Below, piece by piece: positions 5,333-40,135 of a stretch of 49,949 bases of DNA (positions are counted from its first letter, which is position 1; each line of letters starts with the position of its first letter). The notes under the pieces are model-generated. The model made no database searches. It was given only the letters and a program-made list of their open reading frames with translations, and was not told the origin of the DNA. The position numbers and the translations under genes were made by a program. Source of the DNA: a phage. The stretch is from the sequence record OZ470806.1. One strand, given 5' to 3'.

Positions 5333-5845
5333 ATGGCTACAATTGGAGCAAGTTATTTTGCTGTAATGTCTCGTGCGTTACCTGGTCAGGTTTCTGACAC
5401 TTCAGCTTATAATATTGATGGCGCTTGTGTTCTTGAGAATGCGGCAGGCAATCAGAATCGGTCTGTTTTTGTTGGTGTGGCGGTCCAGCATGGCGGCGTT
5501 GATGCTATGGGCAATAAGCTAATTAAGCCGATGGCGGCAAGCGGCAAGGCTTACGGCGTTGCAATTCGATCTCACTTTCAGACAACTTCGTCTGACGGTC
5601 GAATGATTTATGAATCTGGCGGCGGAATCAACGTAATGACTGAGGGGCGTGTTTGGATGTTGGCTAAAGACGCTTCCGCTCCAGCGTTCGGCGCTACAAT
5701 CAAACTTTCTGATGATGGTCAGGTTGATACCGCGTCTGGCACTATCGAAACAAACTGGATCGCGACTGGTGATTTCACCGAGTTTCAAGGCTTGAAGCTG
5801 GTAGAGGTTCAGGTGCAAAAAGTTCCGGCAGTTTCAGCAGGTTAA
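5333..5845 (+). CDS. capsid-associated structural protein (paralogue A)
   Basis: 170 aa; RBS AAGGAGAAA; shares GVAV and G-x-VW-x-L segments with the next ORF. Confidence 0.45.
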   Translation: MATIGASYFAVMSRALPGQVSDTSAYNIDGACVLENAAGNQNRSVFVGVAVQHGGVDAMGNKLIKPMAASGKAYGVAIRSHFQTTSSDGRMIYESGGGINVMTEGRVWMLAKDASAPAFGATIKLSDDGQVDTASGTIETNWIATGDFTEFQGLKLVEVQVQKVPAVSAG

Positions 5846-5852
5846 TAAATAT

Positions 5853-5876
5853 GGCGCTCACTGAGCGCCTTTTTTA
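5853..5876 (+). terminator. rho-independent terminator
   Basis: hairpin GGCGCTCA/TGAGCGCC followed by T5. Confidence 0.6.
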
Positions 5877-5890
5877 TATTTGGGGTTATC

Positions 5891-6325
5891 ATGAGTGATT
5901 ATTCAGTCATTGTTGGCGCTGAGTCGCCAGGGTGCATGGTCGATTCTTCAATAATGGTGATTAACGGATCTTTCGTGTGCGGAGATGAATTTATTGCGCC
6001 AGGTAAGATTGTGCGACTATCACATATAATAAATGGATACAAAATAGCAAGTGTTAATGGTGATCTTGTTATTGGCGTGGCAGTAAGGCCGCCGGACTCG
6101 TGCATATATGAGGAGGGTGATCCCGTTAATGTGGTTAGTAGAGGTAGTGTGTGGTGCTTAACTTCTGAGAGCGAAGAGCCAGAATATGGAGATAAAGTAT
6201 TTGTAACGCAAGATGGAGATGCGGCATACAGTGAAGGCGACTTGCTGAGCGGTTGGATCTTTACTGGCGAACATGTAAAGGTTGATCATGATTCATATAT
6301 TGTCGGGGTAAGCATTAGCGCATAA
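5891..6325 (+). CDS. capsid-associated structural protein (paralogue B)
   Basis: 144 aa; similar to 5333-5845 product (IGVAVRP, RGSVWCL, QDGD vs VGVAVQH, EGRVWML, DDGQ). Confidence 0.4.
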   Translation: MSDYSVIVGAESPGCMVDSSIMVINGSFVCGDEFIAPGKIVRLSHIINGYKIASVNGDLVIGVAVRPPDSCIYEEGDPVNVVSRGSVWCLTSESEEPEYGDKVFVTQDGDAAYSEGDLLSGWIFTGEHVKVDHDSYIVGVSISA

Positions 6326-6408
6326 CACAAAATTATGTTGCACGTTTAACAAAAAATGCTATCATTGTGGCGTTACATACTAACAGCCTTTATATATGGA
6401 GGAAGAAA

Positions 6409-7383
6409 ATGGAAAAAGAAAAATTTGATCAGCTAGATGCGGATATTGTTTCTAGCTATCTGGCTACTCGCGGCGTTAAGGGTGATGCTTCTGATATGGG
6501 TATCTGGACGGCGCAAGAGCTTCACAAGATCCGCTCAACTGCCTACGAGAAAGAATATCCGGCAGGTTCAGCGCTTCGTGTATTCCCTGTAACTAATGAG
6601 CTTTCTGATACTGATAAGACTTTTGAATATCAGATGTTTGACAAGGTTGGTTACGCAAAAATTATCGCTGATTACACCGACGATCTGCCGACCGTTGACG
6701 CGCTGATGTCCAGCGAATTTGGTAAAGTGTTCCGCTTGGGTAACGCGTTCTTGATCTCCATTGACGAAATCAAGGCTGGTCAGCGCACTGGTAAGAGCCT
6801 TTCCACTCGCAAGGCAAACGCAGCGCAAAACGCTCATGATCAGGAAGTTAACCGCCTGGTGTTTAAGGGTTCAAAGCCGCATAAGATTCTTTCGGTGTTT
6901 GAGCACCCTAACCTGACAAAGATCGTGTCAACTGGCTGGTTAAGTGCTGATGAAAACACTAAGTTCCCGCAGGCGGCATCTGATGAACTGGAAAAGGCTA
7001 TTGAAACAATTCAGACCATCACCAATGGTCAGCACCGAGCAACCAACATCCTGATTCCGCCGTCTATGCGCAAGGTTCTTTCCGTTCGAATGGAAAACAC
7101 CACTGAAAGTTATCTGGAATACTTCCAGAAACAAAACAGCGGAATCACCATTGACTCAATCGCAGAGCTTGAGGATATTGATGGCACAGGAACGAAAGGT
7201 TGCCTGGTATATGAGAAAGACCCGATGAACATGTCGATCGAAATTCCAGAAGCATTTAACATGCTTCCTGCGCAACCAAAAGATCTGCATTTCAAAGTTC
7301 CGTGTACTTCAAAATGTACTGGCCTGACGATTTACCGTCCGTTTACGCTAGTGCTTATTACTGGCTTGAAAAAATCAGGTTAA
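6409..7383 (+). CDS. major capsid protein (putative)
   Basis: 324 aa from ATG 6409 with RBS GGAGGAAGAAA (ORF track begins at upstream GTG 6367); flanked by terminators; position in head module. Confidence 0.65.
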   Translation: MEKEKFDQLDADIVSSYLATRGVKGDASDMGIWTAQELHKIRSTAYEKEYPAGSALRVFPVTNELSDTDKTFEYQMFDKVGYAKIIADYTDDLPTVDALMSSEFGKVFRLGNAFLISIDEIKAGQRTGKSLSTRKANAAQNAHDQEVNRLVFKGSKPHKILSVFEHPNLTKIVSTGWLSADENTKFPQAASDELEKAIETIQTITNGQHRATNILIPPSMRKVLSVRMENTTESYLEYFQKQNSGITIDSIAELEDIDGTGTKGCLVYEKDPMNMSIEIPEAFNMLPAQPKDLHFKVPCTSKCTGLTIYRPFTLVLITGLKKSG

Positions 7384-7395
7384 TCGTATAACATT

Positions 7396-7425
7396 GGGGA
7401 ATCCTTAACTGGATTCCCTTTTTTA
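7396..7425 (+). terminator. rho-independent terminator after capsid gene
   Basis: hairpin GGGAATCC-ttaact-GGATTCCC followed by T6. Confidence 0.65.
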
Positions 7426-7439
7426 TTGGAGGTTATGAA

Positions 7440-7712
7440 ATGGCTAAAGAAAAAACTGTAACGCTAAAGGTTTCAGGCGTGTGCCTTATCATTGTTGATG
7501 GTGAGCATTATCATCCAGGCAAAGAGTTTGACGTAGAAGAATCAAAATTGAAAACAAGCGCGTTTGAATATCTAATTGCAAAAGGCGATCTGGAGGTTAA
7601 AGACAACTCCGCATTGAATGAAGAAATCAAACAGAGCGCAGCAAGCAAACGTAAAAAAGACCCGCGAGAGGGCAAGAGCAAAGCCGAACTTGAAGACGGC
7701 GGCATCTATTAA
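7440..7712 (+). CDS. hypothetical head-associated protein
   Basis: 90 aa, RBS GGAGGTTATGAAATG, Lys/Glu-rich C-terminus. Confidence 0.4.
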   Translation: MAKEKTVTLKVSGVCLIIVDGEHYHPGKEFDVEESKLKTSAFEYLIAKGDLEVKDNSALNEEIKQSAASKRKKDPREGKSKAELEDGGIY

Positions 7713-7759
7713 TAAAGAGGGCGCTATAAGCGCCCTTTGTCATATCTGGAGGAAACACA

Positions 7760-8176
7760 ATGGTTGATGAATTTTTCACTGACGCAGAAATCACGCAGCA
7801 AATCGTGAAATTAGCTCCACCGATGAAACAGATTGATCCAGATTTAATGGTGACATGGATTGATCTGGCAAAGGAATTTGTTTGCAAGAAGCGGTTTAAA
7901 GAATCATATCCAAAAGCGGTTGCTCTTTATACGTTGCACCTTATGACGCTTGATGGAGCCATGAAGCAAGAAGGGGAAAGCGTAGAAAGTTACTCGCGGC
8001 GAGTTGCGTCATTTTCCCTGACTAGTGAATTTAGCCAGACTTTTGATCGAGTGTCAGGCGACTCTGGCGGAAAAGAGATTAGACAAACTCCCTGGGGGAA
8101 AATGTACGAAACGCTAAATCGTAAGAAAGGCGGTGGATTTGGCCTTGTGACTGGATTTCGGAGGCGCTGCAAATGA
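7760..8176 (+). CDS. head-tail connector protein (putative)
   Basis: 138 aa, RBS GGAGGAAACACAATG; position between capsid and tail genes. Confidence 0.45.
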
Positions 8177-8544
8177 ACTATAACGAGATCGCAAGAATGG
8201 CAACCGAAGGAATTAACTTCTTTAGTGATAGCAACGGTGAGTTTAAGTGCATAACGCAGCGTGGAAGCGTTGAAATCATTGGAGGCGAAGAAGTAGAAAA
8301 GCCAGAGATTAGTGTAATGATTAAGGGTTTAATTCGATCCCCAAAAGTCCGAGAGGTTGACGGCGAGACAATACGAGTAACAGATAAGTTGGGAGTTTTT
8401 AACAATAAAGTTGAAATTAAGAACGGGTATCATATTGATGTTGATGGTGAATTATATGTTGTAGTTGAAGCAAGACCAATCAGGCAAACCAATGTCACTG
8501 TTGCTTATCGGCCTATTTTGAGAAGGATTTCTGTACATGGCTAA
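8173..8544 (+). CDS. neck / head-tail joining protein (putative)
   Basis: 123 aa, overlapping starts and stops with neighbours (translational coupling). Confidence 0.4.
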
Positions 8545-8980
8545 AAACTACACGATAAGGGAATTTCACGGCAACATTGATGCGTGGATAAACGCCGTTG
8601 ATAGTGGACTAAAAGATTGCGTGGAGTTGTTCGCCGAAAAAGTACACACAGATTTGGTTAAGCGTTCTCCGGTAGATACTGGTCGTTACCGTGGAAACTG
8701 GCAGGTGACAGCAAATAAGCCGCCATTGTATGCGCTTAATCAGTACGATAAGCACGGAGACAAAACGATCGCGGAAGGAAAACGTGCCATATACGCAATA
8801 TTACGAGGTGGCGGCGCAGTAAGAGCTATTTATTTTTCTAACATGCTTATTTATGCTAACGCGCTTGAGTACGGTCATTCAAAACAAGCGCCAGCGGGTG
8901 TGCTTGGTATTGTTGCCGTGAAATTGCGTTCATATATAGCTGAGGCAATAAAAGAGTCGAGGGCAAAAAATGCACTATGA
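8537..8980 (+). CDS. tail completion / neck protein (putative)
   Basis: 147 aa, coupled to neighbours; position. Confidence 0.4.
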   Translation: MAKNYTIREFHGNIDAWINAVDSGLKDCVELFAEKVHTDLVKRSPVDTGRYRGNWQVTANKPPLYALNQYDKHGDKTIAEGKRAIYAILRGGGAVRAIYFSNMLIYANALEYGHSKQAPAGVLGIVAVKLRSYIAEAIKESRAKNAL

Positions 8981-9368
8981 ATTAATGCTATCGGCGCGTA
9001 AGGCGCTGGCGACTGAATACGAAAGCAGATTCATGATCGCTTATGAAAACGTAGAGTTTACGCCACCTGGTGACGGTTCGCCGTGGTTGAAGTTTGACTA
9101 TGCCGAAGTTAACACAGAATACTTGTCATTGGATCGAAAATGCGTTTCTTATATCGGAATGATTCAGGTTGGCATTGTGTTTCCACCAGGTTACGGAACT
9201 GACAGGCCGCGCGTTCTCGCTAAAGAGATTGCGCAATTCTTTTACGATGGTAAAATGCTGGAGCATGGTTATATATATGAGGGTGCAAGAGTTCACAAAC
9301 CGCTCAAGAGTGAAAGCGGATGGCTTCTCCCTATAAGGTTTTATGTTCGAATTGAAACAAAGGAGTAA
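8970..9368 (+). CDS. tail terminator-like protein (putative)
   Basis: 132 aa immediately upstream of major tail gene. Confidence 0.35.
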   Translation: MHYELMLSARKALATEYESRFMIAYENVEFTPPGDGSPWLKFDYAEVNTEYLSLDRKCVSYIGMIQVGIVFPPGYGTDRPRVLAKEIAQFFYDGKMLEHGYIYEGARVHKPLKSESGWLLPIRFYVRIETKE

Positions 9369-9373
9369 AAATT

Positions 9374-10036
9374 ATGCATTTACCAAATGGATCGCAAATT
9401 TTCGTTGAGAGCAATCGCGGAAGCGAAATCCAAGCAACAGCAGTGTCAAACGCCAAAGATCCTGTTTTCACTGTTGCATCTGGCGGCACTGCGTACAAGA
9501 AAGGTGATTATGTGATCATCACTGCGTCTTCTTGGGGTAAGCTGATTGATCGTGTTATGCGTGTAAAGGCTAACGGTGAAGAAACAAGCGTGACTCTTGA
9601 AGGTGTAGATACTACTGATCAGAACGTTTTCCCGACTGGCGGTACTGCATCTTTTGCCAAAATTGATGCATGGACTGAGATCCTTTGCGTTAAAGATTTG
9701 TCGCAGGACGGCGGCGAACAGCAATACTACACTTATCAGTGTTTGGCAGACGATCAGGAACAGCAGTTACCTACCTATAAGAGCGCCGTTTCTCTTACCT
9801 ACACTTTTGCGCACGAATACGATAACGCGATCTATCCGCTATTGCGTTCAGCAGATGAATCAGGCGAAGTAACCGCGCTTCGCATGTATGTACCAAAAGC
9901 AAAAGAGATGCGTTGCTGGGCTGGTGTCCTTTCGTTTAACGAAATCCCGCAGACCACAGTTAACGAAATGGAAACCGTTTCCCTATCTGTATCCCTGAAA
10001 GGTCGATTCACCTTCCTACCTTCTCAAGTAGCATAA
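9374..10036 (+). CDS. major tail protein (putative)
   Basis: 220 aa, RBS AAGGAG, followed by strong terminator and the chaperone-frameshift-tape-measure array. Confidence 0.6.
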   Translation: MHLPNGSQIFVESNRGSEIQATAVSNAKDPVFTVASGGTAYKKGDYVIITASSWGKLIDRVMRVKANGEETSVTLEGVDTTDQNVFPTGGTASFAKIDAWTEILCVKDLSQDGGEQQYYTYQCLADDQEQQLPTYKSAVSLTYTFAHEYDNAIYPLLRSADESGEVTALRMYVPKAKEMRCWAGVLSFNEIPQTTVNEMETVSLSVSLKGRFTFLPSQVA

Positions 10037-10041
10037 TCACA

Positions 10042-10065
10042 AGGGGCGTTGCGCCCCTTTTTTTG
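10042..10065 (+). terminator. rho-independent terminator after major tail gene
   Basis: hairpin GGGGCG-ttg-CGCCCC followed by T7. Confidence 0.7.
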
Positions 10066-10091
10066 TTACTGTACAATCATGCTACACGATT

Positions 10092-10122
10092 CATAATCAA
10101 TTCTTTTAACAAAAAGTGCTAT
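10092..10122 (+). promoter_or_regulatory. -10-like CATAAT followed by reverse-oriented copy of the 20-bp conserved element
   Basis: CATAAT 10092-10097; TTTTAACAAAAAGTGCTAT 10104-10122 ends 13 nt before ATG 10136. Confidence 0.35.
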
Positions 10123-10135
10123 CAAGGAGAAAGAA

Positions 10136-10453
10136 ATGTCAAAAATGAAATTGACGATTGGGCCGCTTCCTGACTTTAAATTACCAGTGAAATTTGCAAT
10201 GCCTAACGGAGAAGATCAAACAATTATCTTCACAGTTCGCCACCGCAAAACAAGTGAGATTCACGATCGCTACACGTCAGATACTCCAATGAGCGATGTT
10301 GAAATGATCACCTTCCTTGCTTCCGGTTGGAATCTTGATGATGAATTTAACGAAGAAAATATTAAACAGCTTCTTGATTACTACCCAGCAACAGCAATCG
10401 GATTAACTAGCGCATACATGAAAGCGCTTGCGGGGCAGCGAGTAAAAAACTAA
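10136..10453 (+). CDS. tail assembly chaperone (G-like, zero-frame product)
   Basis: 105 aa, immediately upstream of tape measure; ends at slippery site. Confidence 0.7.
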   Translation: MSKMKLTIGPLPDFKLPVKFAMPNGEDQTIIFTVRHRKTSEIHDRYTSDTPMSDVEMITFLASGWNLDDEFNEENIKQLLDYYPATAIGLTSAYMKALAGQRVKN

Positions 10454-10764
10454 AAAGGGCGGTTTACCTGTTTTATCAGAAACCGCCGACAGATGCAGAG
10501 CTTGAGGCTGTTGGCCTTACAAGGGCAGACTATGAAGGAGAAGATCCGCCAGAGGTTATATTTGATGAAAGCATGATGCAATCATGGGATATATTTTGCG
10601 CAATGCAAACGCAATGGAGATGTTCTGGCGGTGGCGCTTACGGATTTGATTATAATGTCTTGCCTATGCTTTTTGAGATTTACAAGGTTGAGGATCGCGA
10701 GATGGCGCTAAACGACTTGCGAATCATGGAGCAAAAAGCACTTGAAATGATGCATTCAAAATAA
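10136..10764 (+). CDS. tail assembly chaperone, -1 frameshift fusion product (GT-like)
   Basis: A_AAA_AAC heptamer 10444-10450 in zero frame; -1 frame open from there to 10764; 8-bp hairpin GGGCGGTTT/AAACCGCC 10457-10487 starts 6 nt downstream. Confidence 0.6.
10444..10450 (+). other. programmed -1 ribosomal frameshift slippery heptamer A_AAA_AAC
   Basis: X_XXY_YYZ pattern in frame of 10136 ORF, 2 codons before its stop. Confidence 0.6.
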
Positions 10765-10786
10765 GCGCCTACGGGCGCTTTTTTAT
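10764..10786 (+). terminator. rho-independent terminator
   Basis: hairpin AGCGCC-tacg-GGCGCT followed by T6. Confidence 0.55.
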
Positions 10787-10803
10787 TACCTGGAGGATTA
10801 ATA

Positions 10804-13476
10804 ATGTCAGAACAATACGCAGGCTTGACGCTTGGGGTTGACGTTTCTCAACTCAACAATGCTGTAAAGTCTTTGCAGCAATTCAAGAAGGCAAACGACG
10901 ACGCAAAGGGAAGCATTGAGAGTTTTGTTGATTCAGAGGTTGTTGCAAGACAAAGAGCCAAACAACTGGCTGAGGAATTGGCAAAGCAGAAGCAAGAATT
11001 TAAAGCAATTCAGTCGGCAATAGATCCGACAGCAAGCAAAATGGATAAGTTGCGCCAGGCTGCGACACAGCTTGATGCGCTTTGGAAAAAAGGAATTGTG
11101 CCGGATGATACATTCTTTGAGTTAGGATCAATTCTTGAGACGCAGCAAAATAAACTGATCGCAACTAAGAAGGCGCTAACTGAAGAAGGCCGCGCGGCGC
11201 TTGAGGAAGCAAAAAATAAGGCAAGGGCAGAGGCTGAGGCAAGAAAGTTCATTGCGGCATTGCAGGCGCAAGCTGACGCAGCGGAAAAAACAAAATCAGA
11301 GCTTGTCGAAATGAGAGCCGCACAACTTGGAGTTAGTGCAGAGGCAGCGCCATTTATTGCAAAAATGAAGGAGCAGGAAAAACAAGCCTCAAAACTTGGC
11401 GTTTCTATGGGGCAGTACAAGCAAGCAATGGCGCAATTGCCAATGCAGATCACTGACGTTGTTACTTCTCTTGCTTCAGGTATGCCAGTATGGATGATCG
11501 CAATCCAGCAGGGGGGGCAAATCAAGGACTCATTCGGCGGTGTTGCTAATACGTTTAAAGCGCTAATGACATTTGTCACGCCGCTAAGTGTTGGCATGAC
11601 GGCGCTGACTGGTGCGCTTGGTTATGCTGCATATAATGCATACAAAGCAAATGCGCAACTAAAGGAGATCACAAAAACCGTTCAGGAGGCAACTGGTCTT
11701 TCTGGTGATTTTGCGGAGCGTATTGCAACTGGAATCCAGGCGCTATCTGACAAGACAGGAGAGAGCGCAGACAATATCTCAAAGGCTTACATAAGCACGA
11801 AGGATGGAGCAAGCGAGGCTATACAAAAACTCGTCGATGTTGGTTTTACCTATGATGAAGCAAAGGCTAAGGTAAACGAATACAAAAACGCATCAAGTTT
11901 TGTAAGTCTTAACAATGAAATTGCTGATCACAAAAACAAAGTTCTTGAGCTTGGTGATTCATGGTATGCGGTCTTAAAAGCAAAACGTGATTATGCTTCA
12001 CCGTCCGGCGGGCTGTTGGGGAAAGAGCTTGGTTATGTGAATCCAATGCTGCAATTTGCGAAGAACACCTATGAGGATATAGGAAAGATCGTAAAAGATG
12101 CGAATAAGGATATGGCGGAACGAGCAGCACGCATCGACAGAGAAAACCTTTCATTAAACAGAGTTCGAGCGGCGCAAGAGGCTTTAAACAAAGCCATAGA
12201 GGATCAGAAGAACGTAGCAAGGACAGCAGACGAAGAGTTGAAAAAGCGCGCGGCTGAGAACGTGGAGTTCAGGCGAAAAGAGCTTGAAGAGGCGAAGAAG
12301 GCGCAGCAGCAAAAGGAGAAAGTTGGTGGAGTTGTAAAAGCACCAACAGAGCAGCTTGATAAGGAGCTATATGTTCTCAAGGCGCAACTTGAAACGCTGA
12401 AAGAGCACCGAACTGTAAATGATGTTATTTCACGCCAGAGGCAATCTTTGTGGAGCATTGAAAAGCAGATCCAGATCCTTGAGGAAGCGCAAAGTAAACG
12501 CAAGCTGACAAAAGCGGAACAGGCATTATTAAACGAGCAAAAAGCAGTTATTGCTATGGCAAAAGAAAAGGCAGAGATAGGCAATCAGATTGTTTTGCAA
12601 CAGAGAAAGAACAAGCAATACCAGGAAGGGCTTAAATTCATTCAGCAAACATCAGATGCTATTGACGCTATGAACTTGCGACAGTCTGGAGCTACAGATC
12701 TGCAAATCCAGCGAGAGCTTGAGTTGAAGAAGTTGCGAACTGATTATGTTGCTGGCGGCGGTAGTATCGACGATGAAATTTATCAGCAGATGGAAGCAAA
12801 GCTGAAGGAGTATTACGCCACTGAGGATCAGCTTAGAAATAACTGGATTGCAGGAGCAAAAAACGCATGGGAGGTTTACGGACAAGATGCAATGGATATG
12901 TACGGCAACGTGCAAGATATTGCAAGCGAGGCGCTCAACGGTCTAACCAACCAAATGGCTACATTCCTTGCAACAGGAAAGGCAAACTTTAAGAGCTTCG
13001 CAACGTCAATCATCCAAATGATTATCCAGATGATCACAAAGATGGTTATCTTTAATGCCATATCCGGTGCGATTGGCGGTGACACTTGGACGATTGGAAG
13101 CCTTCTTAAAAATGTTGGATTTGCAACTGGTGGATACACTGGCGACGGCGGGAAGTATGAGCCAGCAGGTGTTGTTCATAAAGGCGAGTTTGTCATGACG
13201 AAGGAGGCCACGAAGCGGATCGGAGTTGGAAATCTTTACAAAATGATGCGCGGTTATGCAAATGGCGGCGTTGTTGGCGGCACTTCATACACTGGCGGAG
13301 GAGTTTCATCTGGAGCAACAAATCTTAATATTGGCGGGATCAGCGTTGATATTAACAACGGAAGCGATCCGAAAGGGTTGGAGACTGGCGTAAAAATGAT
13401 TTTCACTGATATGATTAAGCGTTCCTGTACGCAGGGTGGGGAAGTTTACGAATTTGTTATGTCTAAGCGGGGGTGA
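10804..13476 (+). CDS. tail tape measure protein
   Basis: 890 aa; long Ala/Glu/Lys/Gln-rich coiled-coil region; Gly-rich C-terminus; follows G/GT pair. Confidence 0.9.
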
Positions 13477-14969: not shown

Positions 14970-15382
14970 GAATAATTGAGCCTGAATCTCGTCCTCTGAT
15001 TGGTCGCCCGTGGTCGCTTGGGGCGTATGATTGCTGGGGGCTTATTATGGCATGGCACAAGCAACATGGCGTTATCCTGAATGATTTCAGGAAACCATAT
15101 GAATGGTGGAAGCCTGAGCACGGCGAAAATCTTTACCAGGAAAATTATCTGAAAGAGGGTTTTGTTGAAACAGGAGAGCCGCCAAAACCTGGTGATATGG
15201 TTATCTTTCAGCTTTCCGCGCCAGTGTGGAATCATGCAGGCATTTATCTTGGCAACAATCAATTGCTTCATCATGCCTTTGGCAAGTTGTCAAGGGTTGA
15301 TTTGTATTCTGGATGGTATCAGGAACATGCAAAAATGGTTTGTAGACATAAGGATCTGAAATATGACTTTGAAGGTAATTAA
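14912..15382 (+). CDS. tail tip assembly protein K-like, C-terminal NlpC/P60-like part
   Basis: DCWGL (Cys) and NHAGIY (His) motifs; frame open from 14864, overlapping previous ORF. Confidence 0.6.
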   Translation: MCDEMGVSWVIVSWPEGDMRIIEPESRPLIGRPWSLGAYDCWGLIMAWHKQHGVILNDFRKPYEWWKPEHGENLYQENYLKEGFVETGEPPKPGDMVIFQLSAPVWNHAGIYLGNNQLLHHAFGKLSRVDLYSGWYQEHAKMVCRHKDLKYDFEGN

Positions 15383-15968: not shown

Positions 15969-15994
15969 GTCGCGCGTTGCGCGGCTTTTTTTTT
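15969..15994 (+). terminator. rho-independent terminator
   Basis: 7-bp GC stem (GTCGCGC/GCGCGGC) followed by T9. Confidence 0.65.
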
Positions 15995-16039
15995 GCCCGT
16001 ATAATTCAACAAATCAAATAGCACAAAAGGTGAAAAAGA

Positions 16040-21039: not shown

Positions 21040-21190
21040 ATATACATACATATAAATCAATAAGTTAGCAGTATATATATTTATGTTTGTTCTTTATTGT
21101 TATCTATGTTTTGTGTGATTTTGTGTGTCTGGTGATTTTTCTGTGATTATGCATGTGTCAGTGGTTATGTGTGTATATATATCTATATCC
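21040..21190. repeat. AT/TG-rich intergenic repeat region, copy 1
   Basis: contains AAATCAATAAGTTAG (21054-21068), GGTGATTTTT and GTATATATAT blocks shared with 41365-41550. Confidence 0.5.
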
Positions 21191-28883: not shown

Positions 28884-29357
28884 TTAGCAATTAGTGCTTT
28901 CAGGTTTATACAGGAATCCGCCAGGCTCATAATCTGACATTCTTACCACTCGCAACATTTCACGCTTATCACATCTCTTTGTGAGCGGTTTGCCATTGGA
29001 ATCAAATCGCAGGTCTGGACGACAGAATGATGCGCGATAGCCTTGACATCCATACTTTTTGTAATCGTTATGCACCTTTTGAGCGCCAGCGGCTGAAATC
29101 ATACCGCGAACACGCCACTGATTTACGGTTTGCTGGCTAACGTTAAGACGTTTTGCCATTGCTGATACACTTCCGTAATACTCAATAAGGATGTCAAGGC
29201 GTGCTTTTAGCCCGGCGCGCACTTCATCTTTTAGTACATAGTATCCTGTAGGGCGCTTGCGCTTTTTCTTATCCTTACCTCGTCGAGTTCCGTTATTGCC
29301 ATTGATTGTGCGTTTGTCAATCTTGCCTGTTGATACCGCGATTCGCTGTTCTTTCAT
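28884..29357 (-). CDS. HTH DNA-binding protein (putative regulator)
   Basis: 157 aa; basic KDKKKRKR tract; helix-turn-helix-like MAKRLNVSQQTVNQW. Confidence 0.5.
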   Translation of the reverse strand: MKEQRIAVSTGKIDKRTINGNNGTRRGKDKKKRKRPTGYYVLKDEVRAGLKARLDILIEYYGSVSAMAKRLNVSQQTVNQWRVRGMISAAGAQKVHNDYKKYGCQGYRASFCRPDLRFDSNGKPLTKRCDKREMLRVVRMSDYEPGGFLYKPESTNC

Positions 29358-29370
29358 TATTCATTCTCCA

Positions 29371-29414
29371 ATAGCATTTTTTGTTAAACGATGATTTAAT
29401 GATTGTGTATTATA
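29371..29414 (+). promoter_or_regulatory. promoter with conserved 20-bp element (helicase)
   Basis: ATAGCATTTTTTGTTAAAC + 19-nt spacer + ATTATA. Confidence 0.45.
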
Positions 29415-31486: not shown

Positions 31487-31892
31487 TAAAGGCGATTATC
31501 TGGAGTTTTACGAAAGAGATCCGACGGATACGCTAAAGGAGGAATCACACCAGATCGGGGCGTTTCAATGGTTAACTTATGCTCATCCTGAATTTCTTGC
31601 CTGGCATACTAAAAATGAGGGCGACAAGGGGATCGCCACTGCAATGATGGATCAGCAAGCCGGACTAGTTAAGGGCGTAAGTGATTTCATCATCCTGATT
31701 GGATTAAAAGGCCGCTATCCGTTTGCAGCAATTGAGATGAAGCGCGTCAATAAGTCAGGCAAGGGTAAGGCTTCACCAGTCAGCAAGGAGCAAAAAGCCT
31801 TCTTGCGCCGTGTGCGTGAGCTTGGCGGATTCGCTGCCGTAACATACGGATATAAGCAATTCATGATCGCGGTAGAATACATGATGAAATAG
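31473..31892 (+). CDS. VRR-NUC-type PD-(D/E)xK nuclease
   Basis: 139 aa; GVSDFIILI...AIEMKR motif. Confidence 0.6.
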   Translation: MAMTDKGDYLEFYERDPTDTLKEESHQIGAFQWLTYAHPEFLAWHTKNEGDKGIATAMMDQQAGLVKGVSDFIILIGLKGRYPFAAIEMKRVNKSGKGKASPVSKEQKAFLRRVRELGGFAAVTYGYKQFMIAVEYMMK

Positions 31893-31933
31893 CACTTTTT
31901 GTTAAAACAGGCGCGAAGGATTGCGCCATAATA
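31889..31933 (+). promoter_or_regulatory. promoter with conserved 20-bp element
   Basis: ATAGCACTTTTTGTTAAAAC (stop TAG of upstream gene embedded) + 19-nt GC dyad spacer + CATAAT. Confidence 0.45.
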
Positions 31934-31966
31934 ACACCAGTTCAACAAACAACAGGTAATTAAGAA

Positions 31967-32053
31967 ATGAGCAAAGAAACCGAAGTGACATTTGAACAAA
32001 TAGAACGCGAAACATTCATTGGCAATGCTCTTGCTACTGGTGGTCATTACTAG
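31967..32053 (+). CDS. possible small ORF (28 aa)
   Basis: ATG-initiated ORF between promoter and dam; weak RBS. Confidence 0.2.
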   Translation: MSKETEVTFEQIERETFIGNALATGGHY

Positions 32054-32080
32054 GCTGTTAAACCAAATCAATATTTCAAA

Positions 32081-32668
32081 GTGACTGGCAACCGCTATAA
32101 CGGAAGCAATACGCCGGACGTTGTGCGCGATTTGTGGTCTACGCCGTCTGAGCTTGTAGAATGGATGGAAAGCGAATACGGTGATTATGACATTGACGCG
32201 GCGGCAAGCAAAGAAAATGCTGTATGTGAAAAATTCTACAGCAAGGAAACAAATTGTTTAAAGCGTTGGTGGGGTAGTAATAAGCATATATGGCTGAATC
32301 CACCGTATAGCAATATTACGCCATTTGTTAAGAAGGCGATTGAGCAAATGGAGCACAACAACCAGATCGACATTCTGTTACCTTGCGACACATCAACAGG
32401 ATGGTTTTATGAAGCGCAGCAGCGCGCAGCGGAAATAATCTGGATCACTGGCGAAGTTTACCAGGAGGATGGAACAGAATATTCCCGCACCGGACGCCTT
32501 GCGTTTACTTCCGCGCTAACAGGTAAACCAGTGCAGGGAAACAACAAAGGCAGCGTTATTTTCATCATGCGCGAACTGAAAGAAGGTGAGCAGCAGAAAA
32601 CGCGATACGTTAAAATCAGCGACATTTGCCCTTCGGTGGCAGACCGTCGCGCACGGAAACGGAGCTAA
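32081..32668 (+). CDS. dam: DNA N6-adenine methyltransferase (Dam-like)
   Basis: DLWSTP and NPPY motifs; GTG start. Confidence 0.75.
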   Translation: MTGNRYNGSNTPDVVRDLWSTPSELVEWMESEYGDYDIDAAASKENAVCEKFYSKETNCLKRWWGSNKHIWLNPPYSNITPFVKKAIEQMEHNNQIDILLPCDTSTGWFYEAQQRAAEIIWITGEVYQEDGTEYSRTGRLAFTSALTGKPVQGNNKGSVIFIMRELKEGEQQKTRYVKISDICPSVADRRARKRS

Positions 32669-32672
32669 AACC

Positions 32673-32930
32673 ATGCAAAAAGAAAGAAGCGTTTATTTAA
32701 ATGAAACTGGAGAATGGTTGTTATTTCGCGCTATGGTATGCGATGCACTTGATAAAAACCCTAACGTGAAAAAGATGATTGATTGCGATCCGTGGGAATT
32801 TTCAAGCGCATTAGATATGAGCTTTGAGGAGACAAAAAAACTCCCGCTTGAAAAATGGAACGAGCAAATCAGAAATGACATGCAAGAATTTGTCGATTCG
32901 TGGAATTTTCAGCACGGAATGATCCACTAA
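32673..32930 (+). CDS. hypothetical protein
   Basis: ATG 32673 after RBS GGAG, coupled to dam stop. Confidence 0.45.
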   Translation: MQKERSVYLNETGEWLLFRAMVCDALDKNPNVKKMIDCDPWEFSSALDMSFEETKKLPLEKWNEQIRNDMQEFVDSWNFQHGMIH

Positions 32931-32973
32931 CAGCACTTTTTGTTAAAACGCCCGGCCTTGTGTCGGGCATAAT
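32930..32973 (+). promoter_or_regulatory. promoter with conserved 20-bp element
   Basis: ACAGCACTTTTTGTTAAAAC + dyad GCCCGG/CGGGC spacer + CATAAT. Confidence 0.45.
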
Positions 32974-33005
32974 TATTTCATCAAAACGAACAAGAGGAAA
33001 ACAAA

Positions 33006-33185
33006 ATGGTTGTTTACGATCCACGCGCTTTTAAAATTGCTCAAGAAGTTTCACGCGAATCTGTTGCTGGCGGTTCGGTTAACGGCTATCAGTTTGATTG
33101 GTCGGCAGCAATGACCCTGCTTAAGGTTGCATATGGTCACGCGCCAATTGAAACAGCGGAGGAATATTATAAGCATGAAGGTTGA
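33006..33185 (+). CDS. small hypothetical protein (59 aa)
   Basis: ATG with RBS GAGGAAAACAAA directly downstream of predicted promoter; below ORF-track size cutoff. Confidence 0.4.
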   Translation: MVVYDPRAFKIAQEVSRESVAGGSVNGYQFDWSAAMTLLKVAYGHAPIETAEEYYKHEG

Positions 33186-33417
33186 ACAAGGTAGGCAGGC
33201 TGTATGGGATCACGCAAAGGAATGCGGGATCGCAGAAGACATAGCCAGGATAGCGAAATATTTTGATATTGCTGACATAAGCATTATCAGCGGCGACAAA
33301 ATGACATTTCTCAATGAACGACCGCGCAAGATGCATCGCGTACCAGCAATACCAACAAAGATTGATTTCAAAGAGGCTATGGCGAAAATTCGCGAGCCGC
33401 GCAAATACTACAAATGA
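33175..33417 (+). CDS. hypothetical protein
   Basis: ATG 33175 after RBS GGAGGAA; overlaps stop of upstream small ORF. Confidence 0.45.
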   Translation: MKVEQGRQAVWDHAKECGIAEDIARIAKYFDIADISIISGDKMTFLNERPRKMHRVPAIPTKIDFKEAMAKIREPRKYYK

Positions 33418-33512
33418 GGATTATTATCATGTGGCGTTTGTTACTTTTGCCCTTACCTGTTATGATGGCGATCTCTATTGTATACGTTGTCATAATGAGA
33501 TAAGGAGAATTT

Positions 33513-34631
33513 TTGATGAAGCAAATCAAAATCACAGATGAACAATTTATCAATGAGCGCAAGCAGGGAAAGACATATAAGCAGATCGCTAATGAGTATG
33601 GCATGAACGTTCGCAGCATTGAGCGCCGCGCGGCACGATTAGCAAAGCAAGGTAAAGTTACAACCATCGGATCACCTGGTTTTGGTGTTACTGGAGAATC
33701 AAAGCTAATTGATAAAGATGGCAATGTGGTTATGACATGGATTAAGACAAGTAAGGACCGCGAACAGTTAGAAGCATTAATGCAGGCCGCTATGGATGCA
33801 TTTAGCGAAGAAGTTCCTCGACTTGATCCACAGCCAGAATCACAAAAGGATTATAGCGAGACGCTATCACTGTATCCGATCTTTGACATGCACTTGGGCG
33901 CAATGGCGCATAAGCATGAATGCGGCGAGAACTGGGATACAGCAACAGCAGAGCGCGTAATGAATAATTTCATTGATTATTCCATCCAGTGCGCGCCGGA
34001 TAGCGAAAAGGCTGTTTTGCTGATTGGTGGTGACATGCTGCATAGTGACGGCCTGGAAGCGGTGACACCTGCAAGCGGTCACGTATTGGATCAAGATAGT
34101 CGATACGCAAAACTTGTTTATGTTGCCATCCGGTCAGTGCGTAGAGCAATTACAAAGCTGTTATCAAAACACAAAAACGTCGAGATTCAGATCATTGAAG
34201 GCAACCACGACCAAAGCGGTATGATCTGGTTGCGCGCAGCAATGGCGGCAGCATATGAGAATGAGCCACGAGTGCATGTTGATGTATCTCCGCGAGTAGT
34301 TCATCACACACAATATGGCAAAACATTCCTGGCATACCATCACGGGCATACTATCCGCAAACCTGAAACATTGCTCATGATGTGCGCGGCAGACTGGCGC
34401 GAAGACTTCGGCAATTCAAAAATGATGTATGCTCACGTAGGGCATTGGCATCATCAAACAGTAACCGAAACAAGCCTGGGAATTGTTGAAGTGCATAGCA
34501 CTATGGCGGCAAAAGATGCATATGCGGCGCGCGGTGGATGGCGATCTCGTCGCCGTGCGGCTGTTATTGTTTATGATAAAGAATACGGAGAAGTAGGGCG
34601 ATTTATGCATTATCCAGAAATGGCTGGTTGA
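33513..34631 (+). CDS. HTH-domain / metallophosphoesterase fusion protein
   Basis: N-terminal HTH-like YKQIANEYGMNVRSIERRAARL; GDMLH, GNHD, GHWHH calcineurin-like phosphoesterase motifs. Confidence 0.6.
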   Translation: MMKQIKITDEQFINERKQGKTYKQIANEYGMNVRSIERRAARLAKQGKVTTIGSPGFGVTGESKLIDKDGNVVMTWIKTSKDREQLEALMQAAMDAFSEEVPRLDPQPESQKDYSETLSLYPIFDMHLGAMAHKHECGENWDTATAERVMNNFIDYSIQCAPDSEKAVLLIGGDMLHSDGLEAVTPASGHVLDQDSRYAKLVYVAIRSVRRAITKLLSKHKNVEIQIIEGNHDQSGMIWLRAAMAAAYENEPRVHVDVSPRVVHHTQYGKTFLAYHHGHTIRKPETLLMMCAADWREDFGNSKMMYAHVGHWHHQTVTETSLGIVEVHSTMAAKDAYAARGGWRSRRRAAVIVYDKEYGEVGRFMHYPEMAG

Positions 34632-34674
34632 ACTTTTAATCATTAAAATATAAATATAAATCATAAATTTAATT

Positions 34675-34705
34675 GGGCGTGGCATTTTGCTTCGCCCTTT
34701 TTTTA
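34675..34705 (+). terminator. rho-independent terminator
   Basis: GGGCG...CGCCC stem followed by T7. Confidence 0.5.
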
Positions 34706-34710
34706 TTCCT

Positions 34711-34739
34711 TTTTGTGCGTTCAATGGTTAGGATACAAT
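34711..34739 (+). promoter_or_regulatory. candidate promoter of lysis cassette
   Basis: TTTTGT/TTGTGC -35-like, TACAAT -10-like at 34734. Confidence 0.3.
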
Positions 34740-34777
34740 CAATTAATTGTTGACTTTTATCTACAGGAGATCTAATC

Positions 34778-34993
34778 ATGAAAGATTTTTTAAACGCTGC
34801 AACTTCCGGCACTGGCGGCGCGTCAATCACTGGCGCGGTAACTGGTCAAACAACTATTGCAATGGCCAGCTTCGTTTTGATGGCTGCATTTGGTATGTGG
34901 GGCGCTTATCTTCGCTGGCGTGATAGTAAGGCGCTACGTGACGCGCTTGAATGCGGTGATATTAAGAAAGCTATTGAGATCAGAGGTAAATAA
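34778..34993 (+). CDS. holin (putative)
   Basis: 71 aa; hydrophobic segments; charged C-terminus; immediately upstream of endolysin with ATGA coupling. Confidence 0.55.
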
Positions 34994-35565
34994 TGAGTAT
35001 AAAACAAAGAGTGACCGCTGCGGCTTTTGGCGTTGCTCTTGCCCTTACTTCTCCGCTACTGGAGGAAATAGAAGGAGTAAAACATAAGCCGTACAAAGAT
35101 ATTGCTGGGATATGGACGGTTTGCGCCGGAATAACTGGACCTGACGTAATACCAGGCAAAACGTACACACAGAGAGAGTGCGATGCGCTACTGGCAAAGC
35201 ATATCAAGATCGCAAAGGATGAAGTTGATAAACGTGTGAAGGTTGAGATTCCTGATACAATGCGCGCAGCGATGTATTCATTCACATACAATGCTGGCAC
35301 TGGTGCTTTTAGAAATTCAACCATGCTTAAGCTGATTAATAACGGTCGTTATATGGAAGCGTGCAATCAGTTATGGCGATGGACAAAATACACCAATCCA
35401 AAAACAGGAAAGAAAAAACGTCTAAAGGACTGCGCAACCGCCGCGCGGTGGAATTTAAATATTGCATTAAGGATCTGTAATCATGAGAAAGTTATCAGCA
35501 ATCGCGATCGCTGTTATTTTGTCTGGATGTTCAAGCGTTACGCCACTGACCGGATTAATCGGTAG
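34993..35565 (+). CDS. endolysin, T4-lysozyme family with SAR-like N-terminus
   Basis: E-x8-D-x5-T ([16 protein letters not shown]); N-terminal Gly/Ala-rich weakly hydrophobic segment [17 protein letters not shown]. Confidence 0.75.
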
Positions 35566-35881
35566 TAAGCCGGAAATCACAGCACAGGCAGGGGCGGAGA
35601 ACGTAAAGCAGACCGTTGGCGTTACCGCAAAGCAGGACACCAGCACGAAACAGGAAACTACAATAAAGGAATCTGCGGTTGATAAGGTGGACACTTCCAG
35701 CAAGAAGGATTTCACTACGTCAACCATTCAGGCAAACACCATCAAGGCTGATAAAATCCAGATTGTGCAGGGTGAGCAAAGGAAGTGGTACGATCCTATA
35801 ATCTATTGCGCTGCAATTTTCAGTGGTCTTTTGACTATGCTTTACTTTTCCTACCGCAAAGATAACAAAAAGGAGGCTTAA
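35483..35881 (+). CDS. unimolecular spanin (u-spanin) candidate
   Basis: 132 aa; lipobox LSGC at N-terminus and single C-terminal TM segment; overlaps endolysin 3' end. Confidence 0.6.
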
Positions 35882-35895
35882 CGCCTCCTTTGTTT

Positions 35896-36114
35896 TTATG
35901 CATCGGGCCATTCGTGGGAATGGTTTGTTAATTGTTGGTTTTCTTGAAACTCAATATCGTAATGACCAGCCATCACGCGCATTGCCATGTTTTCAACATA
36001 TTCTACAGCTTGCTCACGAGTCCATGAGTCGGCTGGGAACTTTGTAGGAATTTCAGTAGTAGTTCCGTTTTCATGCTTGACAACCAGCGCCACGGTGAAA
36101 AATTTGTTGCTCAT
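35896..36114 (-). CDS. hypothetical protein
   Basis: 72 aa; RBS AAGGAA; own promoter copy upstream. Confidence 0.45.
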   Translation of the reverse strand: MSNKFFTVALVVKHENGTTTEIPTKFPADSWTREQAVEYVENMAMRVMAGHYDIEFQENQQLTNHSHEWPDA

Positions 36115-36150
36115 GGTAACTTCCTTTTGTTGTTTCGTTTCGATGAAACA

Positions 36151-36194
36151 AATATACCCGATACGAGATCGGGAGTTTTAACAAAAAGTGCTAT
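36151..36194 (-). promoter_or_regulatory. promoter with conserved 20-bp element (minus strand)
   Basis: minus-strand ATAGCACTTTTTGTTAAAAC + dyad CCCGAT/ATCGGG spacer + TATATT. Confidence 0.45.
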
Positions 36195-36385
36195 TCAATA
36201 CGCTTTACAGTAACCAACAAAACGCCGTCCTCATCACACAAATTATGCTCTGATATATCAAACGCTCGCATGTCAGAATGAATGAGCGTTAACATTGCGT
36301 GCATGAAGTCGTCATGTGAGATTGAACTTACGGCGCAGAACTTCAATATTTTGTCTATTAGCATTTGACGTAAACAATTCTTCAT
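36191..36385 (-). CDS. hypothetical protein
   Basis: 64 aa; RBS GGAGAAA before ATG 36385; stop embedded in conserved element; overlaps 3' end of upstream gene. Confidence 0.3.
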   Translation of the reverse strand: MKNCLRQMLIDKILKFCAVSSISHDDFMHAMLTLIHSDMRAFDISEHNLCDEDGVLLVTVKRIE

Positions 36386-36704
36386 CGCTCATTTCTCCGA
36401 TCCTTAAAACATCCCTTACCCATTCGTTTTGCATACCTTCAAGGCTGTAAAGTTCAAACGAGAAAGGGCGATTTGCTGATCCTTTCTTACACCAGAACTT
36501 TCCACCAACTCCATCAAGATAACCAGCGGTCATCATTCTTGCGCAAAACTCTTTTGAAACGGCGGTTGCAAACATTCTCGGCGTAAATCCTGCGGCCCTT
36601 GCGAGCCGCTCACATTCTCTATGCTGAAATATAAATTTCGCTATATGTTGACGTGTAAACCATTCGAATGACTCACACCAGCGATACAGATCCAGAAGAA
36701 ACAT
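36312..36704 (-). CDS. hypothetical protein
   Basis: 130 aa, coupled to upstream P-loop gene. Confidence 0.45.
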   Translation of the reverse strand: MFLLDLYRWCESFEWFTRQHIAKFIFQHRECERLARAAGFTPRMFATAVSKEFCARMMTAGYLDGVGGKFWCKKGSANRPFSFELYSLEGMQNEWVRDVLRIGEMSDEELFTSNANRQNIEVLRRKFNLT

Positions 36705-36706
36705 AA

Positions 36707-38290: not shown

Positions 38291-38317
38291 TGGTGATAAC
38301 TCCTTTTTGATGCGGCA

Positions 38318-38361
38318 ATAATACCGCACCAATGCTACCCGCATTTAACAAAAAATGCTAT
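38318..38361 (-). promoter_or_regulatory. promoter with conserved element variant (minus strand)
   Basis: minus-strand ATAGCATTTTTTGTTAAAT + spacer + TATTAT inside dyad GCGG/CCGC. Confidence 0.4.
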
Positions 38362-38579
38362 TTGATCCGCTCTATGCTAACTAAGATTTTTTCTGGTTCC
38401 TTTGCACTATGGCAATGCGCGGTTACAGAATCAACAAAATCAAAGTAAAGTGATTTGTGATATGAGAATCCAATCAGCCACCCAACCATCGTTTTCTTTA
38501 TTGGCCTGACTATATCGCCAGGATTGAAGGTTTTTGTTGCTGAATGAGTCACCTTATAGCGATATTCAGCCTTGATCAC
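38358..38579 (-). CDS. hypothetical protein
   Basis: 73 aa; coupled to upstream gene; stop embedded in conserved element. Confidence 0.4.
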   Translation of the reverse strand: MIKAEYRYKVTHSATKTFNPGDIVRPIKKTMVGWLIGFSYHKSLYFDFVDSVTAHCHSAKEPEKILVSIERIK

Positions 38580-38962
38580 TTATACATAGCCTCAAACAAA
38601 TGACAGCCACCAGCGGAAAATCCAACTTCTTCGCGGTATAGCGTCCAGCGGTCGCCAGACTCATCAAACACATAACCAGCAACAGCGCCAAGCGCGCGGC
38701 CTTGCTCAATCTGGTAACGCTTTCCTTCTTTGAAATGCTTTTTGCACGGGATCTTGTGATCTACAAATGTGCATTTAATTGTTTTTGTCTTGATGTGACG
38801 ATAGTCAGACTCAACAGCGTTTTGCCACTTGCTACCCTTTGTAATGCTCTTTACCTGGAATTGTTCCAACTCGATCACATCATCGCTACCAGCAATTTTT
38901 TCGTATACAGCTTTATAACGACCGTTCATCAAAACGTTGGTTTTATTGCAGATAACTTTCAT
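38576..38962 (-). CDS. hypothetical protein
   Basis: 128 aa; RBS AAAGGAGAAA. Confidence 0.45.
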   Translation of the reverse strand: MKVICNKTNVLMNGRYKAVYEKIAGSDDVIELEQFQVKSITKGSKWQNAVESDYRHIKTKTIKCTFVDHKIPCKKHFKEGKRYQIEQGRALGAVAGYVFDESGDRWTLYREEVGFSAGGCHLFEAMYK

Positions 38963-38993
38963 CTTTTATTTCTCCTTTCGTTTCGGTGAAATG

Positions 38994-39037
38994 ATTATGC
39001 CAGGCTTTTACACCTGGCTTTTAACAAAAAGTGCTAT
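38994..39037 (-). promoter_or_regulatory. promoter with conserved 20-bp element (minus strand)
   Basis: minus-strand ATAGCACTTTTTGTTAAAA + GCCAGGTGTAAAAGCCTGGC + CATAAT; near-identical to copy at 42471-42514. Confidence 0.45.
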
Positions 39038-39744: not shown

Positions 39745-39753
39745 TTCATCACC

Positions 39754-40088: not shown

Positions 40089-40099
40089 TTATTCACCAT

Positions 40100-40126
40100 T
40101 GATAAAATGGGAGGCGGAAACCTCCC
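40100..40126 (-). terminator. rho-independent terminator (minus strand)
   Basis: perfect hairpin GGGAGG-tttccg-CCTCCC followed by ATTTTAT on minus strand. Confidence 0.55.
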
Positions 40127-40135
40127 ATTGGTTAA

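Follow-up and report, generated by a model that had tools for sequence, protein, structure and literature searches.

Why should a short repeat that in most of its copies points along the downstream gene be turned around in front of two late genes of a phage, those for the major capsid protein and the tape-measure chaperone? The question is raised by the phage sequence OZ470806.1, a stretch of 49,949 nt that is called the window here and to which all positions refer. Judged by its sequence, it belongs to a Hanrivervirus-like phage of the T1 family (Drexlerviridae): the late region (5800-11000) is 99.7% identical with Escherichia phages JLBYU09 and JLBYU41 and 97% identical with pSf-1, grams and the BASEL phage JakobBernoulli (Bas07), all of which are Drexlerviridae of the subfamily Tempevirinae and belong to Hanrivervirus or stand near that genus. 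T1-like phages are abundant, they are present in therapy collections and a nuisance in the laboratory, and they order early and late expression without a polymerase or sigma factor of their own. With a confidence that stays a little short of even, we suggest that the 21-nt repeat is the recognition module of the main promoter class of this phage, and that its inverted copies may couple two late promoters negatively to that class. The anatomy of the sites and its conservation can be read directly from the sequences; from them, we infer the transcripts, their competition and timing, and a reader that may be RNA polymerase alone or in combination with a phage factor.

The repeat and its co-directional copies

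Matched on sequence, the element is the published 21-nt direct repeat of phage TLS (consensus aaATAGCACnnnTTGnTAAAA). This repeat occurs in the subtypes TTT, GAA and AAA, and T1, Rtp and Rogue1 carry it too (PMC11447400). The authors of the TLS study found just three canonical sigma70 promoters, they suggested that the repeats might be stoperators, enhancer sites or UP-like elements, and in 2024 they listed the function of the repeat among the open questions of the field (PMC11447400). According to the text of that paper every repeat is oriented with transcription, and yet its Table S1 gives DR7 on the negative strand (15044..15024), inside the positive-strand head module and beside terminator T35 (PMC11447400). 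The table thus contradicts the paper's own text. The capsid copy of the window is homologous to DR7, and the copy in its J leader to DR8.

In the window, 14 matches to the repeat are found at three or fewer mismatches as compared to 0.07 expected from shuffles, and the 21-nt version AATAGCACTTTTTGTTAAAAC has 16 copies at five or fewer mismatches. Fourteen of these 16 copies are co-directional with the downstream gene, whereas two late copies are reverse-complemented relative to the late genes on the + strand. The original prediction had claimed reverse-oriented copies before the capsid and chaperone genes, and both are indeed present as exact matches: TTTAACAAAAARTGCTATC is found on the + strand at 6345-6363 and 10105-10123, and the full inverted 21-mers extend over 6343-6363 and 10103-10123, the positions given originally (6344-6362 and 10104-10122) being 1 nt too low. 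The copy at 10103-10123 agrees with aaATAGCACnnnTTGnTAAAA at all specified core positions, and the one at 6343-6363 carries ATAGCAT and TAAAC, like TLS DR7. Both copies are intergenic, between annotated late genes, and both break the rule established for TLS, i. e. an orientation with transcription about 76 nt before the start codon, as DR7 does likewise. The distance from the end of the 21-mer to the ATG is 12 nt at the chaperone gene (10136) and 45 nt at the capsid gene (6409). The check named with the original prediction, absence of the element from the same loci in close relatives, does not refute it: the capsid copy is family-wide, and throughout the Tempevirinae and Tunavirinae, in which the capsid proteins are 53-99% identical, the 21-mer is near-invariant although its flanks diverge. 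At the chaperone locus, the copy is present in Hanrivervirus, Warwickvirus and Tunavirus including T1, but absent from Tlsvirus, Henuseptimavirus and Webervirus.

All 14 co-directional copies are followed by a -10-like hexamer of the form [T/C]AnnnT (CATAAT, TATAAT, TATATT, TATTAT, TATAGT or TAAAGT), and the distance is 18 nt throughout except for three copies with 17 nt. With the -10 set at -12 to -7, the repeat lies at about -51 to -31, its centre near -41. No TTGACA-like hexamer is present at a workable distance in these promoters. TTGnTA was considered as their -35 and rejected, as the spacer would be 22 nt. The lack of a -35 and the fixed gap to the -10 point to repeat-dependent promoters, which the co-directional copies are predicted to provide for most early and DNA-metabolism genes. 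Webervirus NJS2 has the same geometry of repeat, gap and -10. We propose that in this class the 21-mer would act as an upstream recognition module at about -51 to -31, joined by the fixed gap of 17-18 nt to a -10 that has no canonical -35.

Which factor might read such a module? The sigma54 consensus, TGGCAC-N5-TTGCA, bears some resemblance to the repeat; this candidate was rejected since the spacing between its two halves is 2 nt too short in the repeat and since it is a -10 hexamer that is conserved. A comparison by eye with the IHF, Fis and CRP consensus sequences gave no convincing match. Moreover, a search of 185,579 species genomes found the exact 21-mer in no record of Enterobacteriaceae, an argument against the regulon of a host factor; the three matches in this collection are one contig of a T1-like phage and two single occurrences in unrelated metagenome-assembled genomes.

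Several features accompany the repeat promoters. A strong GC hairpin (-7.5 to -14 kcal/mol) occupies the 18-nt gap in six of the 14 co-directional copies, its stem differing from copy to copy; the two late copies lack it (gap-fold energies 0.0 and -2.8 kcal/mol). Together with GTTTTAAC, the gap hairpin is terminator-like on the opposite strand. Several of the early cassettes in 31888-47880 (e. g. 42470-42550, 32929-33010, 36114-36195 and 38962-39038) share the leader CATCGAAACGA before the Shine-Dalgarno (SD) sequence. In four repeat promoters (39018-39060, 42470-42515, 42933-42978 and 43937-43980), Dcm sites (CCWGG) lie in the gap, abutting or near the -10, as in CCTGGCATAAT and CCAGGTATAAT. 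In the window as a whole, CCWGG occurs 110 times as compared to about 64 expected from mononucleotide shuffles, and since the phage encodes a Dcm-like methyltransferase, methylation of these promoters is possible.

The inverted copies at the capsid and chaperone junctions

The capsid junction comprises the following features:

5891-6325, + strand: cement/minor-capsid-like protein, flanking the capsid copy of the repeat
6338-6365, + strand: predicted capsid promoter with -35 TTGCAC (6338-6343), 16-nt spacer and TGcTATCAT (6357-6365)
6343-6363, - strand: repeat of the capsid junction, read on the - strand as GATAGCATTTTTTGTTAAACG, without a leftward -10
6369-6396, + strand: hairpin and T-rich run directly 3' of the capsid -10, equivalent to TLS terminator T35
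6409-7383, + strand: major capsid protein (ATG at 6409), flanking the copy on its other side

The capsid copy is the core of a predicted rightward sigma70-type extended -10 promoter: the spacer TTTAACAAAAA and the TGcTAT of this promoter are the reverse complement of the repeat, a relation that the original prediction had overlooked. Upstream of the -35 lies an A-tract (6326-6337). The start is predicted at about 6372, inside the 5' arm of the hairpin at 6369-6396, and the repeat thus occupies about -29 to -9. On its own (-) strand, the copy has no -10 at 17-18 nt in the window (TATGCG or TTATGC is found there), and among 70 relatives only two have a leftward TAnnnT at the canonical offsets, one at 17 nt and one at 18 nt. 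The rightward promoter is far better kept: of 72 distinct capsid-upstream sequences, 71 from IMG/VR contigs with 53-99% capsid identity and one from the window, 70 retain TTGnnn and TAnnnT on the + strand, separated by a 16-17-nt spacer in which TGn is included. In the relatives, the spacer alternates between two legitimate subtypes of the repeat, the T-type (TTTAACAAAAARTGC) and the G-type (TTTAGCAATTCGTGC), instead of drifting, and in Webervirus it has decayed (GCTTAACGATTCGTGA). In this conserved repeat identity, it is unlike ordinary promoter spacers. In Tunavirus Chapo (MT682715), the depositors annotated exactly these 28 nt as a promoter, followed by a terminator. The capsid leader folds no better than shuffles (z = -1.0).

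At the chaperone junction, the inverted copy faces a different set of features:

9374-10036, + strand: major tail protein, flanking the chaperone copy of the repeat
10041-10062, + strand: intrinsic terminator of the major tail gene, the complement of which the predicted leftward RNA would have as its first structure
10049-10077, + strand: predicted chaperone/tape-measure promoter with -35 TTGCGC (10049-10054) in the terminator loop, 17-nt spacer and -10 TACAAT (10072-10077)
10079-10084, - strand: leftward -10-like TAGCAT, exactly 18 nt (10085-10102) past the repeat, with a predicted start at about 10072
10103-10123, - strand: repeat of the chaperone junction, read on the - strand as GATAGCACTTTTTGTTAAAAG, near-invariant in 24 distinct relatives
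10136-10453, + strand: tape-measure chaperone (ATG at 10136), flanking the copy on its other side

The rightward promoter of this junction is conserved in 48 of 52 distinct junctions irrespective of the presence of the element; in the relatives, it consists of TTG(C/T)(G/A)C in the hairpin loop, a T-run that makes up the 16-18-nt spacer, and (T/C)AnnnT. With a start predicted at about 10084, the repeat lies at about +20 to +40 and abuts the chaperone SD AAGGAG (10124-10129), inside the 5' untranslated region (UTR) as had been proposed. The -10 to which this leader had been ascribed, CATAAT at 10092-10097, is present as well, but it is not conserved beyond the closest relatives, whereas TACAAT is.

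The leftward promoter, in contrast to that of the capsid copy, is complete. The junction has 24 distinct variants, found in Hanrivervirus, Warwickvirus, Tunavirus including T1, and others. Every one of them has a gap of exactly 18 nt, the sequence of which varies, and a hexamer TAnnnT in one of nine different forms; in 21 variants TGn precedes this hexamer. When the leftward hexamer was scored as an AnnnTA set 1 nt apart from the rightward -10 on its downstream side, it was found in 26 of 26 junctions that bear the element and in 0 of 21 that lack it, the sole apparent exception (L129) being an element-bearing sequence clipped by the limits of the analysis. Therefore, the leftward -10 is part of the repeat's own promoter rather than of the rightward one, and antisense transcription from the chaperone copy, as the original prediction had envisaged, is possible. 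The two -10 hexamers, TACAAT at 10072-10077 on the + strand and TAGCAT at 10084-10079 on the - strand, are 1 nt apart, both of them conserved and within one polymerase footprint. Assuming the usual distance of 7 nt between the -10 and the start site, transcription is predicted to start divergently at about 10084 (+) and 10072 (-), 12 bp apart. The junction is thus predicted to be a bidirectional, mutually exclusive promoter pair.

It is conceivable that the leftward product rather than the competition matters at this junction: The antisense RNA, or polymerases meeting head-on, might act on the 3' end or the terminator of the highly expressed major tail mRNA and tune its stability or the read-through into the chaperone and tape-measure genes. 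The complete leftward promoter would suit such a function, as would the position of the junction, which divides a high-copy gene from genes needed in low copy, and the predicted leftward RNA begins about 10 nt before a strong hairpin (-15.4 kcal/mol, z = -3.3). Yet this hairpin is merely the complement of the rightward terminator, the U-run that follows it on the - strand is weak both in the window and in T1, no Rfam family matches it, and the capsid copy is not addressed at all. We therefore regard this explanation as very unlikely. A second role for RNA had been put forward in the original prediction, according to which the inverted repeats in late 5' UTRs pair with the forward repeats of early transcripts. 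The computed duplex of 21 nt is perfect and stable (-25.6 kcal/mol), and the chaperone and regulator copies do lie in predicted 5' UTRs beside an SD. The idea fails, however, for the capsid copy, which is upstream of its own predicted start, and for the copy in the J leader, which has the same sense as the early copies. Moreover, the forward copies are upstream of their own starts rather than at 3' ends set by a terminator, the chaperone leader is devoid of special structure and folds no better than shuffles (z = -0.4), an Rfam scan of the whole window gave no match at the gathering score, and pairing leaves the leftward -10 unexplained. Such a mechanism seems extremely improbable.

A coupling of promoters, which we prefer, would account for both inverted copies, since each sets the module inside or against a late sigma70-type promoter. 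At the capsid junction the overlap would be direct: anything bound to the module would cover about -29 to -9 of the rightward promoter. At the chaperone junction the module retains a complete leftward promoter that would oppose the rightward one, and the pair could accommodate one RNA polymerase at a time. The leftward arm would give rise to a short antisense RNA that either stops at the terminator of the tail gene or continues antisense into this gene. If initiation directed by the module is strong, presumably early in infection, the rightward late initiation would be held down sterically. A precedent is provided by the bidirectional promoters of E. coli, at which polymerase cannot engage both orientations together and activation of one arm represses the other (PMC12825309). 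A negative coupling of this kind would set the timing or dosage of the capsid and tail-assembly genes.

Several observations weigh against the coupling. First, the searched literature contains no transcript, start-site or binding data for any T1-like phage, and the start sites and the competition are therefore predictions; the sole literature match for Drexlerviridae and RNA-seq had sequenced a T5-like phage, and the PhageExpressionAtlas has no T1-like entry. Second, the predicted start spacing of 12 bp is not among the commonest spacings of bidirectional promoters, i. e. 18, 10 and 23 bp (PMC12825309). Third, TAGCAT makes a weak leftward -10 in the window, with a TG that is 1 nt out of place. 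Fourth, the chaperone copy is dispensable, as it is lacking in Tlsvirus, Henuseptimavirus and Webervirus; these genera keep the rightward promoter and a possible TTTAAC remnant, which suggests that the copy was lost. Finally, Webervirus has a decayed capsid copy (ATATCACGAATCGTTAAGC), in spite of early copies that still conform to the ATAGCAC consensus. Webervirus maintains only the rightward promoter function at this site, and as its capsid copy does not co-evolve with the early copies, the claim of a universal dual function is weakened.

The last two points would also fit an explanation in which the inverted copies are relics of recombination between repeat-bearing cassettes. Only the rightward late promoters would then matter, and the identity of the repeat would be kept by chance or because TGCTAT makes a good extended -10. 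This would agree with the capsid promoter of Webervirus, which is kept while the repeat identity decays, and with the simple loss that the TTTAAC remnant suggests in several genera that keep the rightward promoter. It is difficult to reconcile with a 21-mer that stays near-invariant in the Tempevirinae and Tunavirinae amid diverged flanks, with the perfect co-occurrence of the element and a correctly spaced leftward -10, and with a capsid spacer that switches between two legitimate subtypes without drift. A relic is, in our judgement, decidedly unlikely.

Other late sites and the regulator gene

Repeats are associated with further promoters of the window:

2087-2117, + strand: portal junction, with a degenerate G-type repeat (2087-2107) over the terL stop TAG (2089-2091) and TATAAT (2112-2117)
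15977-16037, + strand: J promoter, with TATAAT (16000-16005) and, at a distance of 17 nt before it, TTGCGC (15977-15982) inside the terminator loop
29370-29436, both strands: helicase/regulator promoters, with the repeat at 29370-29390 (+), 17 nt, and TATTAT (29408-29413) for the helicase gene

The partial copies AAATAGCAC had already been noticed at the first two sites, after terL and before J; they are present and both forward, at 2086-2094 and 16016-16024 instead of 2088-2096 and 16012-16018. At the portal junction of the window the repeat ends 4 nt before TATAAT, and TAGCAC is therefore at the -35 position of the portal promoter. The relatives have a full forward G-type repeat over the terL stop, 4-5 nt before a conserved TA(T/C)AAT, i. 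e. at roughly -37 to -17. In the J 5' UTR, the forward A-type repeat (16017-16037) contains the SD. One relative (L202, IMGVR_UViG_3300045988_066863) has inverted half-sites, ATAGCAT-N15-GTGCTAT, directly before the J start in place of the forward A-type repeat. In the helicase/regulator region, a canonical leftward promoter (TTGAGT at 29436-29431, 16-nt spacer, TATAAT at 29414-29409) opposes the repeat promoter; TATTAT and TATAAT overlap by 5 bp, and the starts predicted at 29402 and 29420 are 18 bp apart. The leftward transcript is predicted to cross the repeat into the regulator gene (28884-29357, - strand), the 5' UTR of which thus holds an inverted repeat beside its SD. The helix-turn-helix of the encoded 157-aa protein resembles Cro proteins (PDB 5W8Y, 3BD1), and the protein falls into PHROG 2856 ('transcriptional regulator'). 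This layout is conserved in Webervirus NJS2.

Taken together, the repeat lies at about -41 in the early promoters. In the regulator promoter and in those of four late genes, i. e. portal, capsid, chaperone and J, it overlaps the core or follows shortly after it; at the late promoters its orientation is mixed. These positions would agree with a protein-binding site for timing control, one of the options of the original prediction. They could also be expected if the 21-mer were purely an operator or 'stoperator', the site of a phage DNA-binding protein for which the Cro-like 157-aa protein (28884-29357) is a candidate. Such a protein would activate from about -41 early and repress over or after the late promoters in either orientation, and the leftward transcription at the chaperone junction would be incidental. 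Activation-type positions in 14 promoters and repression-type positions in four late ones, as well as the mixed orientations, are readily accounted for in this way. Moreover, the candidate gene adjoins a repeat in its own 5' UTR after a canonical promoter, a classic autoregulatory layout that is kept in Webervirus, the absence of the 21-mer from Enterobacteriaceae counts against the regulon of a host factor, and stoperators and enhancers had been raised by the TLS authors (PMC11447400). An operator, however, has no need for a leftward TGnTAnnnT, yet all 24 variants retain this motif exactly 18 nt from the repeat, and it occurs only together with the element. Cro-type proteins usually bind sites with dyad symmetry, whereas the 21-mer has none, and the choice of the Cro-like protein as the binder is a guess. 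A pure operator seems unlikely to us, if still worth considering.

The proposed recognition module and an operator might also be one and the same. In this bolder scenario, a single asymmetric 21-bp module would be the master switch of T1-like development, read by the host RNA polymerase and a phage Cro-like protein: it would be on at -41 in about 14 early promoters and off at portal, capsid, chaperone and J in either orientation, and the early-to-late switch would come about once the growing number of genome copies, and hence of sites, titrates the reader. We consider this idea rather improbable.

The late promoters are also peculiar in their relation to terminators. Two of them are located inside intrinsic terminators (10041-10077 and 15971-16005) throughout the family: TTGCGC makes up the loop and the start of the 3' arm, and the T-run serves as the 17-nt spacer that precedes the -10. 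The portal (2112-2145) and capsid (6360-6396) promoters have the opposite layout, in which a terminator-like hairpin with its T-run comes 1-4 nt past the -10. As the predicted start falls within the 5' arm, transcripts that arrive from upstream would be terminated, and local ones, devoid of the full stem, would read on. Two further observations were made along the way. GT-rich imperfect repeats (e. g. TGTGTGGTGATTTTTGTATGTATATATATGGGT) occur in two gene-poor stretches (41456-41548 and 21126-21158), one of which is situated in the gap that separates the outermost repeat copy of leftward orientation (41069) from that of rightward orientation (42470); an origin or a packaging-related region is conceivable here. 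In addition, a 46.7-kb contig of the Nitratidesulfovibrio liaohensis assembly (NZ_VSMK01000220.1) has several typical T1-like repeat promoter cassettes and is probably a contaminating Drexlerviridae genome in that assembly.

Relation to known systems

The repeat itself, phage promoter repeats, bidirectional promoters and promoter competition were already known. The novelty lies in the promoter geometry of the repeat, in the inverted capsid copy as a promoter core, and in the interlocked sense/antisense pair at the tail-chaperone junction. This anatomy makes the question of repeat function, left open in the TLS paper, directly testable in available phages such as T1 and BASEL Bas07. With the direct repeats of TLS- and T1-like phages (PMC11447400), the copies studied here share the sequence family, the T, G and A subtypes and the intergenic placement. 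The fixed gap of 17-18 nt to the -10 and the inverted capsid copy as a promoter core are absent from the description of TLS (PMC11447400), and the inverted chaperone copy is found here while TLS lacks it.

The late sites recall the stoperators of mycobacteriophage L5, which are cited by the TLS authors: these are also short asymmetric intergenic repeats, some of them downstream of promoters. Stoperators of the L5 type are bound by a phage repressor, they block elongation depending on their orientation, and they are sites in transcribed regions with one orientation, whereas 14 copies of the window precede a -10 and the late ones are of mixed orientation. Most copies are thus at a fixed distance from a -10 and are promoter parts, and the phage is virulent and has no known repressor. 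There is also some likeness to cassettes built from repeated early promoters, in which the units lie between small early genes and many of them have a GC stem-loop. The PeSL cassettes of T4-type phages consist of an early promoter and a stem-loop. The repeat promoters differ from them in that the hairpin is inside the promoter gap, that there is no canonical -35, and that the two late copies have no hairpin; a canonical early sigma70 promoter with a terminator-like stem-loop was not found in them.

Promoters without a -35 are well known from class II activation, with CRP or FNR at -41.5, and from Mor and C of phage Mu. As in these promoters, a conserved site of about 21 bp near -41 replaces the -35 upstream of a good -10. 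In contrast to them, the phage repeat is asymmetric, and the host polymerase alone may suffice.

The closest parallel to the chaperone junction is provided by the bidirectional promoters studied in the Grainger laboratory, in which opposed -10 elements lie within one footprint and the starts are divergent (PMC12825309, bioRxiv 10.1101/2020.01.31.928960). At the bacterial promoters, binding in the two orientations is mutually exclusive (PMC12825309), and for the chaperone junction this likeness is predicted from the sequence. The junction differs from its bacterial counterparts in several respects: its hexamers are adjacent and do not overlap, the starts are predicted to be 12 bp apart, one arm faces a terminator with no gene behind it, and the phage 21-bp module replaces the -35. 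The helicase/regulator pair, with its predicted starts at 29402 and 29420, has the classic 18-bp bidirectional geometry. If the reading proposed here is true, a virus would provide a natural and conserved example of genes that are controlled through competition between the arms of a bidirectional promoter, in addition to those known from bacteria.

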